In this document: piece by piece, positions 3,218 through 58,400 of the stretch
Layout: the number at the start of each line of letters is the position of its first letter
Numbering within the stretch: position 1 is the stretch's first letter
Assembly: GCA_048937405.1 (NCBI GenBank)
Contig: JBHLNF010000009.1
Span: 32,001-96,000 of the forward strand
DNA length: 64,000 bases
Direction: 5' to 3'
DNA from: Promethearchaeota archaeon
GTDB taxonomy: Archaea > Asgardarchaeota > Lokiarchaeia > Sigyniarchaeales > SOKP01
Notes under the pieces: generated by a model
The model's input: the letters and a program-made list of their open reading frames with translations, nothing else
Databases searched by the model: none
What the model was told of the DNA's origin: nothing
Position numbers and translations under genes: made by a program

Positions 3218-3335
3218 TTTATTCCATTCCTATAATACTTAATATTTATTATTTTTTTTTAAAAAATTATAAACAATATTCTTTAATAGATGTTTATTTG
3301 GTTTTAGTAATAAAAGTTCAATAAGGTGATCTATT

Positions 3336-3809
3336 ATCTATAAAAAAATATTAATTGGTATTGATGGATCAGAACATTCTTATAAAGCTTTATTAAAGTC
3401 AATGGATATTCAAAAATCAAGTAATTGTGAAGTGATTGTATTTCATTCAGTAGAACATCATGCAGAACCTAGTGGAATGTTTATGTCACCATCATTTAGC
3501 ATACCTCATATCCACAGTATTTCAGATCCTGATATACAAAGAATAAAAGAAGTTTATGAATTAAATGCTCAAGCTATTATAGATAGAGCTAAAGAAATCT
3601 TTATAGAAGAAGGAATACAAATTGAAGGTAGGTTAATTTTTTCAGATGGACCAGTATCCTACATTAAAAAAATGGTAAAGGAAGAAAATATTGATCTCGT
3701 TATTATTGGGAGCAAAGGTACTCATTCCCTTCTAGAAGAACTATTACTTGGTTCTGTTACAGAGAAAGTCTTAAGATATATTCCTTGTGATATCCTAATT
3801 GTTAGATGA
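3336..3809 (+). CDS. Universal stress protein (UspA family); start re-assigned to near-cognate ATC (or ATT 3333)
   Basis: The frame upstream of ATG 3402 encodes YKKILIGIDGSEHSYKAL (USP strand beta1/helix 1). There is an in-frame TGA at 3327 and SD AAGGTGA at 3323-3329. C-terminus has GSKG..LLLGSVTEKVL..PCDILIVR. Confidence 0.85.
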   Translation: MYKKILIGIDGSEHSYKALLKSMDIQKSSNCEVIVFHSVEHHAEPSGMFMSPSFSIPHIHSISDPDIQRIKEVYELNAQAIIDRAKEIFIEEGIQIEGRLIFSDGPVSYIKKMVKEENIDLVIIGSKGTHSLLEELLLGSVTEKVLRYIPCDILIVR

Positions 3810-3977
3810 TTTTCTTTATTTAGACAAAATTTCTTCTGAGATCCTTTATCAGTCATGTTCAATTTATTTCATTCTTGTATTACTATATACTTATCTTTTT
3901 TTTTAAAATTATTAACAATATATTTATATAGATAATTATTAGGTTTTAATAATATAGGTTCAATTAGGTGGTTTATT

Positions 3978-56657: not shown

Positions 56658-57200
56658 TATTAGATTTCTCCTTAATAATTTTTGGATATAATTTTTTTCT
56701 TGAAGAATTATTAGACTTGAATGATACCTGTATATTTAAATCTAACGTAAAATTCGTTCAATTCGAAAAGAAATAATTTTGAGAATAATCATAAGGAATT
56801 ATAATTAAATTAAATAATATTTTAGTACTATTAGGAGAATAGATTAATAGATGTCTTTAAAGTTAGTATAGAGATGAAATTTAATAATAAAGAAAAGAAA
56901 AAAAATAAAATTGTAAAATTCCCAATTAAAAACAATAGAAATCGTAGATAAAATTGAAATGGTATTGAAGAAAATGATAGATTATTTAAATCTATTATTT
57001 TAATTTGTTTTTAAAAAGTTAAAAGATAAATTGGAAAATGTTTTTTATTAAATAATATATTAAACTCAATTATACTTGAGTAATCACTATTTTTATCCAT
57101 TTTTTTTGCAGAATAAATATAGTAGTTTTTGTTTCAATAGGTTTAAAATTTAAATAAAATACTATTTTATAATCAAAACATAAACACAAAGGTGGGGAGT

Positions 57201-58400
57201 ATATCAAATTCATCTCTGTATAATAAAAACTCCGCAATAGATCACGTGAGTGCTCTGGCTTTTGGAAGAAAAGCAGGAACAACAGAGGCATACATTGCTA
57301 TGGACTATATCAGAGATACTTTAAAAAAAGAAAATATGAAAATAGAAATAGATCCTTTTTTATGGGTCTCTATTTGGGCTCTTTATATTTTAATGTTTGT
57401 AGTTCTTATTCTTATAATGTCATTTGTTATTATTATTAGTTTTTTCACACTAGCAGGAACAGCATTTGGTTATATTACTCTTTTTGTATCATTTTATTTC
57501 CTAGTTTATTATTTACGTTCTATTTCAATATATAAAAATTTTGATTTACTAAATCCAGTTCAAAAAGGTCATGTATCACATAATATTACTACCAGAATTG
57601 CATCAAATAAATATAAAAGGGAAAAACCAGTTATTATTTTTTGTGCCCATTTTGATTCTGTTTCTATTAGTTATTCTGAAAGAATCATAAATTCTATGAT
57701 TATAATTTTTGTCTTTTATGTTTTTATTTTATTTCCAATAAATTTAACAATGGATGTACATATTATCTTCAAAATATTTAATATAATCTTATTATTTGGA
57801 TTTTTATTCTTCTTTTTAAGTATTAGAGCTAAAAATAAATCAAAAGGTTCTGTTGATGATGCAAGTGGTACTGCTATACTAATTGAATTATCAAAATTAT
57901 TTCACAATAACCCACTAAATAATATAGATTTGATCTTTTTATGGACAGGAGCGGAAGAAATGGGATTGTTTGGTTCAAAAACATTTTGTTATAGAAATTT
58001 TAAAAATTTGAATAATGAATATAATCTAGATAAGTCATATGTTATTAACATCGATATGGTTGGATCCTATATTGGGTTAATTGATCAAATTGGAATGTTT
58101 AAAAAAACCAAGTTCAATAAAAGCTTAAATAATATCTTTGAAGAGATTGCGAGAAAAAAAGAGATTCCACTAAGAAAGGAAATAAAATCAATATCTTTTA
58201 TGAGTGACCACACAGTTTTCCAATCATATGCTAAAAAATACAAACGAGAATTACAGATTTGTTGGTTTTATTCAGGTGAGGACTCAAAATTCATACATAG
58301 TTCAAAAGATACACCCGATAAATGTATACCTGAAAATCTTAATGGTTGCATTGAGCTGTGCTACTATACTTTAAAGAAGTTAGATAAATCATTAGAATGA
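57201..58400 (+). CDS. Membrane M28 family metallopeptidase (start GTG 57192 or ATA 57201)
   Basis: CAHFDS, GSVDDASG, GAEEMG, INIDMVG, SDH, IHSSKDT; paralog of 1937..3217. Confidence 0.8.
   Translation: MSNSSLYNKNSAIDHVSALAFGRKAGTTEAYIAMDYIRDTLKKENMKIEIDPFLWVSIWALYILMFVVLILIMSFVIIISFFTLAGTAFGYITLFVSFYFLVYYLRSISIYKNFDLLNPVQKGHVSHNITTRIASNKYKREKPVIIFCAHFDSVSISYSERIINSMIIIFVFYVFILFPINLTMDVHIIFKIFNIILLFGFLFFFLSIRAKNKSKGSVDDASGTAILIELSKLFHNNPLNNIDLIFLWTGAEEMGLFGSKTFCYRNFKNLNNEYNLDKSYVINIDMVGSYIGLIDQIGMFKKTKFNKSLNNIFEEIARKKEIPLRKEIKSISFMSDHTVFQSYAKKYKRELQICWFYSGEDSKFIHSSKDTPDKCIPENLNGCIELCYYTLKKLDKSLE

Follow-up and report, generated by a model that had tools for sequence, protein, structure and literature searches.

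Eight genes in the window, the 64,000-nt stretch of DNA analyzed here, appear to begin at ATT, ATA, ATC, or ACG and not at a canonical ATG, GTG, or TTG. The comparisons described below make it very probable that these near-cognate codons are genuine starts that selection has kept gene by gene, and we regard it as highly probable that ribosomes initiate at them with methionine. The window corresponds to positions C27:32001-96000 of a 4.47-Mb genome (G000; 29 contigs, ~29% GC). Comparison genomes came from a large genus (g1, family f1) and from families f2-f7 of the same class. The gene names were checked by Pfam (Usp, Usp, ATPase C, E, and D, OsmC, and M28). The sites, each with its putative Shine-Dalgarno (SD) motif, are as follows (ATH is ATA, ATC, or ATT).

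3323-3809, + strand: USP1 (Pfam Usp); SD 3323-3328, putative ATC start at 3336; ATH in 13 of 13 orthologues
3965-4454, + strand: USP2 (Pfam Usp), tandem paralogue of USP1; SD 3965-3970, putative ATA start at 3978, aligning with the USP1 start
30835-31907, + strand: atpC (A/V-ATPase subunit C); SD 30835-30840, putative ACG start at 30849
32570-33310, + strand: atpE (subunit E); mismatched SD 32570-32575, putative ATA start at 32582
36527-37193, + strand: atpD (subunit D); SD 36527-36532 within the 3' end of atpB, putative ATT start at 36543
46510-46989, + strand: OsmC1 (OsmC-like 1); SD 46510-46515, putative ATT start at 46522; ATH in 25 of 28 relatives
57189-58400, + strand: M28 peptidase; SD 57189-57194, putative ATA start at 57201; ATH in 23 of 24 homologues
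59773-61056, - strand: 423-aa protein with no Pfam match; GAGGT 61056-61052, putative ATT start at 61044

The first seven sites had been put forward in an earlier note on this DNA, and the codons, motifs, and spacers that it described were all found in place, as was Ser as the second codon at five of the seven. Its statement that the stretch from the in-frame stop to the putative start contains no ATG, GTG, or TTG is true of the six main genes. In the seventh, the M28 gene, an in-frame GTG at 57192, three codons 5' of the ATA and within the SD, is a possible alternative start in G000. An in-frame CTG lies upstream of the atpD ATT, and the atpE ATA is 12 nt past the atpF stop. The first downstream canonical codon is codon 23 in USP1, 35 in USP2, 63 in atpC, 176 in atpE, 14 in atpD, 20 in OsmC1, and 16 in the M28 gene. 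The eighth case, at 61044 on the minus strand, was absent from the earlier note and was pointed to by a start model (below). Its 423-aa product (59773-61044) is 71-85% conserved in 28 of 30 genus genomes, and by eye its C-terminal part has a HIT/GalT-type nucleotidyltransferase look.

The same class of codon was found at the homologous Met1 position in related Lokiarchaeia, in 13-30 genomes per gene; these counts cover the genes other than USP2, for which a distinct set of orthologues was not found, and are non-independent because the genus genomes are mutually related. The atpD column holds ATA in 14, ATT in 11, and ATC in 5 genomes (30 of 30 ATH), with an in-frame stop no more than three codons upstream in 21 of the 30. 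For atpE the count is ATT 17 and ATA 10 (27 of 27), and for USP1 it is ATT 11 and ATC 2; nine more remote USP1 homologues carry ATG, GTG, or TTG in this position. The three OsmC1 relatives without ATH have TTG one codon downstream. Of 24 M28 homologues, orthologues and paralogues together, only one has ATG, and the gene starting at 61044 has ATT or ATC in 20 of 20 relatives, one of them needing a one-codon shift. The atpC column is ACG in 22 genus genomes and TTG in 5 but never ACA, ACT, or ACC; ACG makes up only 7% of Thr codons, and the codon is thus not retained for threonine. In families f2 and f4, atpD has ATG, TTG, or GTG at the Met1 column or within two codons of it, and some public atpE homologues carry Met at the proposed start column. 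Sequencing or assembly error might be suspected in a genome of 29 contigs. However, the same codon class recurs in as many as 30 independent assemblies, that of the near-identical genome G036 among them, and this conservation reduces the chance of such an error to practically nothing. As a separate observation, several relatives (L199, L203, and L206) have Ile where the membrane protein encoded by the window ORF at 45799-46401 has its Met, a further exchange of ATG and ATH.

Sequence divergence takes on a coding pattern at the proposed starts. Between the atpD start and its first canonical codon, differences were 0.13, 0.03, and 0.41 at codon positions 1, 2, and 3, with 87% amino acid identity; over the eight triplets upstream of the ATH they were 0.62, 0.69, and 0.75, with 18% identity, a non-coding pattern. 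The same contrast between the two sides of the proposed start was seen in atpE, atpC, and OsmC1, and the coding pattern on the downstream side was seen in USP1. These data bear on the possibility that translation uses a canonical start after all, at a downstream Met or at a GTG inside the SD, or proceeds from the upstream gene by readthrough or frameshifting. Canonical codons do lie nearby in many relatives for atpD (at codon 13-16 in 25 of 30 genomes), the 61044 gene (a rival Met at codon 16-18 in every relative), M28, OsmC1, and atpC; for the last two, and for an IleRS-like gene elsewhere in the genome, many relatives have an in-frame upstream GTG or TTG, often inside the SD. In addition, atpB ends in frame two codons 5' of atpD in ~20 genomes. 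However, the segments that a downstream start would skip show protein-level selection. No canonical codon occurs between the upstream stop and the start in atpE (26 of 28) or in the gene for initiation factor aIF1 (21 of 21), and the first one downstream comes as late as codon 176 and codon 106, respectively. At atpD, the upstream frame and the stop codon differ between genomes, and USP1 has no same-strand upstream gene. With these observations taken together, hidden canonical starts and readthrough are very improbable.

The geometry of the SD was then assessed genome-wide, using GGTG motifs near the 5' ends of the 3,644 ORFs of G000. Where GGTG was an orphan, lacking a canonical codon at any workable spacing, an in-frame ATH followed at a spacer of 5-10 nt in 72 of 96 cases, against 27.4 expected (binomial p = 5e-21). 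ATH stood behind orphan GGTG in the other two frames in only 11 and 5 cases, and four control motifs gave no ATH excess in the same genome-wide test. The earlier note had held that SD-positioned initiation at one-mismatch codons is routine in this lineage. This controlled enrichment at near-cognate codons, the conservation of the codons, the canonical column in relatives, and the coding divergence all support that proposal.

The GGTG test gives a strict floor of ~62 genes, or 1.7% of the 3,644 ORFs; because a perfect GGTG is missing from roughly one in two of the cases validated by orthologues, the true share should be ~3% or more. Reading of 474 orthologue pairs yielded ~20 credible near-cognate starts (4-5%). 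An expectation-maximization (EM) start model returned 3.7% ATT, 3.0% ATA, 0.7% ATC, and 0.3% ACG when unrestricted (total ~7.5%) and ~11% when restricted, with likelihood comparisons between codon sets that did not converge. Near-cognate starts appear to account for roughly 3-7% of genes in this genome and genus. The suggestion of about 1 gene in 10 in the earlier note fits the window (8 of ~58 genes), which lies above the genome average, but is too high genome-wide. The strong SD that it invoked also needs qualification, since the atpE motif is a mismatched one. A perfect GGTG, although common, is not required: atpE and aIF1 have a one-mismatch motif. GGTG precedes 5% of ATG, 13% of TTG, and 19% of GTG starts; weaker codons thus tend to come with a stronger SD. 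Of 50 window genes with a called canonical start, only 2 carry it; the note had remarked that many ATG genes of the window lack the motif.

Among 106 high-scoring candidates are the IleRS-like gene, genes for uS4, uL15, and L7Ae, and those for a proteasome subunit, a GPN-type GTPase, and an actin paralogue. The presence of ribosomal proteins among candidates with such starts (uS4, uS10, uL15, and L7Ae) indicates that initiation efficiency is probably not very low. The actin paralogue is a second actin copy (C7:555876-557018, - strand; L349), with an ATT start behind GGTG; it shares 85% identity with the main, ATG-started copy on C25 and has close copies in eight genus genomes. The IleRS-like gene (C28:237206, - strand; L348 and L358-L373) begins with an Ile codon, and C18 carries a second, related synthetase near 106387.

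Three of the window sites fall within an A/V-type ATPase operon (30395-41785) with the gene order K-C-H-F-E-A-B-D-I. In the same genomes, atpK, atpH, atpF, atpB, and atpI start at ATG or TTG in nearly every case, and for atpA ATG was seen wherever the alignment reached the start. In five ATH genes (116 sequences), parsimony counts 13 interchanges among ATT, ATA, and ATC, while none of the sequences has ATG at the start. G is nevertheless common at comparable neutral sites, being present in some genome in 58 of 72 invariant four-fold degenerate columns. The comparison suggests that ATG is avoided at these starts, with the reservation that counts from related genomes are non-independent. We infer that the near-cognate starts are probably weaker than AUG and selected for being so. 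Subunit stoichiometry was considered as the sole rule governing which genes carry a weak codon and was rejected, since the low-copy F, H, and I subunits keep ATG. Downstream of the operon lie a 140-aa membrane protein and then a 606-aa ORF whose N terminus resembles the ATPase A subunit.

Initiation at these codons might instead be real but neutral, with relaxed fidelity allowing AT mutation pressure to turn ATG to ATA or ATT and with neither tuning nor feedback. The ~29% GC content of the genome and the presence of ribosomal proteins among the near-cognate cases are consistent with such drift, as is the interchange of ATG and ATH between close species in several genes. For example, the start column of the IleRS-like gene within the genus is ATT in 9, ATA in 2, and ATG in 5 genomes, and uS4 starts at ATA in G000 but at ATG in G006, with several further pairs swapping likewise. 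However, drift of this kind does not readily explain the lack of ATG in 116 sequences in which the three ATH codons interchange, the retention by atpC of a rare, G-ending ACG that swaps with TTG only, or the retention of ATG by adjoining operon genes. AT-rich archaea outside the Asgard group also lack such starts. A neutral origin is unlikely on this evidence, although it is the alternative to which we give most weight, and we favor selection on the start codon.

Among non-Asgard archaea (73 loci, 1,086 ORFs), orphan GGTG was followed by ATH in 10 of 92 cases against 9.8 expected, no excess, and the AT-rich subset (256 ORFs) had 71 GGTG motifs with a canonical start and zero orphan sites. In two f2 genomes (582 ORFs), 4 of 4 orphan GGTG motifs had ATH against 1.0 expected, which indicates that the habit is present in this family at a lower level. 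In G040, atpC starts at ATT where relatives have ATG. In the single-contig f2 genome G055, the aIF1A gene (L340) has an ATT start against ATG in G050, and its first canonical codon is codon 28. Further f2 candidates are two genes of G050, a tsaA-like one (ATT) and one for a small GTPase (ATA).

In 21 of 21 genus genomes, the ATT of the aIF1 gene directly follows two variable codons, which in turn follow two stops. The first canonical codon of the gene in these genomes lies at 22-106, past the zinc knuckle. Several other Asgard families start aIF1 at ATA or CTG, and in ~70 non-Asgard archaea the start is ATG, TTG, or GTG in nearly all, the exceptions being two Hadarchaeota with CTG. CTG starts of aIF1 were noted in the two Hadarchaeota, in one Thorarchaeota genome, and in one further archaeon; a Nezhaarchaeales gene with a strong SD and then an in-frame ATC is a possible case outside Asgard archaea (L437, L465, L441, L449, and L391 for this group of observations). 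In aIF1 of the Asgard families f16 and f24, the zinc knuckle is missing and an insertion precedes the conserved motif of the C terminus (L236, L238, L244, L251, L256, and L258).

The other components of the initiation machinery that were compared look ordinary. The 16S genes of four genus relatives, from which the anti-SD was read because the G000 assembly has no 16S gene, end with the standard anti-SD, and six decoding-center motifs of genus 16S match those of an f2 genome. The genes for aIF1A, aIF2-beta, and KsgA are all present, and the aIF1 basic loop matches that of relatives. One initiator tRNA was found within an incomplete tRNA set for G000, and it is canonical (A1, anticodon CAU, and three G-C pairs). 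A causal lesion was sought in aIF1, aIF1A, aIF2-beta, KsgA, the initiator tRNA, and 16S, and none was found that would explain the relaxed aIF1/aIF2 fidelity raised in the earlier note, subtle changes remaining conceivable. A Trp in loop 1 of aIF1 was rejected as a cause, as it also occurs in Asgard families that use ATG.

A dedicated tRNA could be imagined in place of the ordinary one: a modified or second initiator, initiation with Ile-tRNA, or, in a related proposal, editing of the mRNA to AUG. A modified tRNA-Met, carrying f5C34, operates in animal mitochondria. The prevalence of ATH among the non-canonical starts would suit such a tRNA, as would the ATT start of the IleRS-like gene itself. 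Nevertheless, the ACG and CTG starts and the swaps with TTG fit one-mismatch reading by CAU and are not Ile-specific, and the single initiator tRNA found is canonical. We consider a special tRNA or editing very improbable, and ordinary Met-tRNA remains our preferred decoder. Within genes, invariant Ile columns (table 11 translation) are filled by ATA, ATT, and ATC interchangeably, which argues against AUA standing for Met.

In the mechanism that we propose, the 16S 3' tail would pair with a GGTG/GTGA-type motif, hold the small subunit, and thereby set a one-mismatch codon (AUU, AUA, AUC, ACG, or, rarely, CUG) in the P site. The ordinary initiator Met-tRNA, brought by aIF2, would accept this codon at reduced efficiency, and in the operon genes atpD and atpE re-initiation after the upstream stop may assist. 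Selection would retain the weak codon in each gene as a setting of its output. Because aIF1 rejects non-AUG complexes and its own gene starts at AUU, the factor would probably limit its own synthesis, which would keep AUU initiation low but usable for all such genes. Whether the start closes a feedback loop of this sort is, in our analysis, evenly balanced. The translational-control layer raised in the earlier note gains support from the avoidance of ATG and the aIF1 start, as a deduction from sequence. More tentatively, and with somewhat less than even confidence, autoregulated aIF1 may act as a translation rheostat that sets the output of a near-cognate regulon of 100-250 genes in several Asgard families. 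Its members could include ATP-synthase subunits C, D, and E, ribosomal proteins, the actin paralogue, and small GTPases, a membership that we hold with the same reserve. Such a rheostat, if real, would be an archaeal counterpart of eIF1 and IF3 feedback.

To our knowledge, prokaryotic AUH or ACG starts have been thought limited to a handful of genes. Animal mitochondria routinely use AUA and AUU starts, on leaderless mRNAs, with f5C34 tRNA-Met and with AUA read as Met throughout. They resemble the present case in the routine use of AUH in an AT-rich genome, whereas here an SD is present and AUA aligns with Ile internally. Near-cognate initiation is already known; what is distinctive here, as far as sequence comparison can tell, is the scale, the range of codons, the conservation of the codon gene by gene, and the start of aIF1. 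According to reviews, archaeal start codons are AUG, GUG, and UUG, and the SD is a rarity in Lokiarchaea (PMC7531240; PMC12993045); in Haloferax volcanii Ribo-seq near-cognate codons appear only among putative alternative sites (PMC7261190). For Asgard archaea, we found no genome-wide near-cognate report in the literature searched, most subscription journals lying outside it. In the Kariarchaeaceae (Heimdallarchaeia), however, the protein deposited for the tubulin gene atubA lacked its true N terminus, and a "rare ATT start" behind a ribosome-binding site was proposed in correction (PMC13394414); this is also an Asgard case, but concerns a single gene and carries no genome-wide claim.

A close parallel is bacterial infC, through whose AUU start IF3 autoregulates (PMC4705826; PMC13009471). 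There, as here, the gene of a fidelity factor has a near-cognate start, a one-mismatch AUH behind an SD. The factor here is the archaeal aIF1 (SUI1 fold), the feedback is predicted, and ~60-250 genes would be involved as opposed to one to four. Staphylococcus aureus has four non-canonical sites (infC, cvfC1, ccpN, and citZ) with extended SD motifs, demonstrated by Ribo-Ret and reporters, and its AUU and AUA starts give 10-30% of AUG output (PMC13009471). Its conserved AUU/AUA starts with an SD, read as lowering output, resemble those described here, whereas in the present genome ~3-7% of genes would be affected, ACG and CTG occur too, the SD is often short or mismatched, and the starts are known from sequence. 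The hallmarks of these systems can be recognized in the window genes, namely a one-mismatch codon at Met1, an SD at 5-10 nt, and conservation while neighboring genes stay canonical. Regarding the factor itself, Saccharolobus (S.) solfataricus aIF1 discriminates against AUU complexes in vitro (PMC4705826), and Pyrococcus (P.) abyssi aIF1 proofreads initiation complexes (PMC6237735). According to the summary in the latter paper, eIF1 autoregulation uses an AUG in poor context together with scanning (Ivanov et al. 2010, cited in PMC6237735). On that summary, eukaryotes and Lokiarchaeia have the factor family (aIF1/eIF1) and the codon spectrum (CUG/ACG/AUU) in common, whereas here an SD would position the ribosome and the near-cognate codon would be the main start of the gene. 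The sequence feature expected of fidelity-factor autoregulation, a conserved poor start, is present on aIF1; those of fidelity loss (Sui-, ksgA, and initiator tRNA stem) are absent, with aIF1, aIF1A, aIF2-beta, KsgA, and the G-C pairs of the initiator tRNA intact.

The mis-annotated N termini that the earlier note foresaw were found for OsmC1 and atpE. The NCBI OsmC1 protein for G000 starts at Met20, and the atpE database protein starts at codon 19, an ATT. The annotated proteins of relatives range from 222 to 261 residues and begin at a variety of incorrect positions, while a few have Met at the true column. Many Lokiarchaeia database proteins are thus likely to have wrong N termini, as gene callers mistake such genes, and this bears on structures, on heterologous expression, and on claims that the SD is rare in Lokiarchaea. 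If the rheostat exists, the N termini of many Asgard eukaryotic-signature proteins would need revision. The initiator tRNA-Met gene was unlisted by ARAGORN at default settings and by an Rfam search. It lies at C3:4885-5051 (- strand; L356) and spans 167 nt, with apparently three introns: one follows the anticodon, one interrupts the variable region, and one the T arm.
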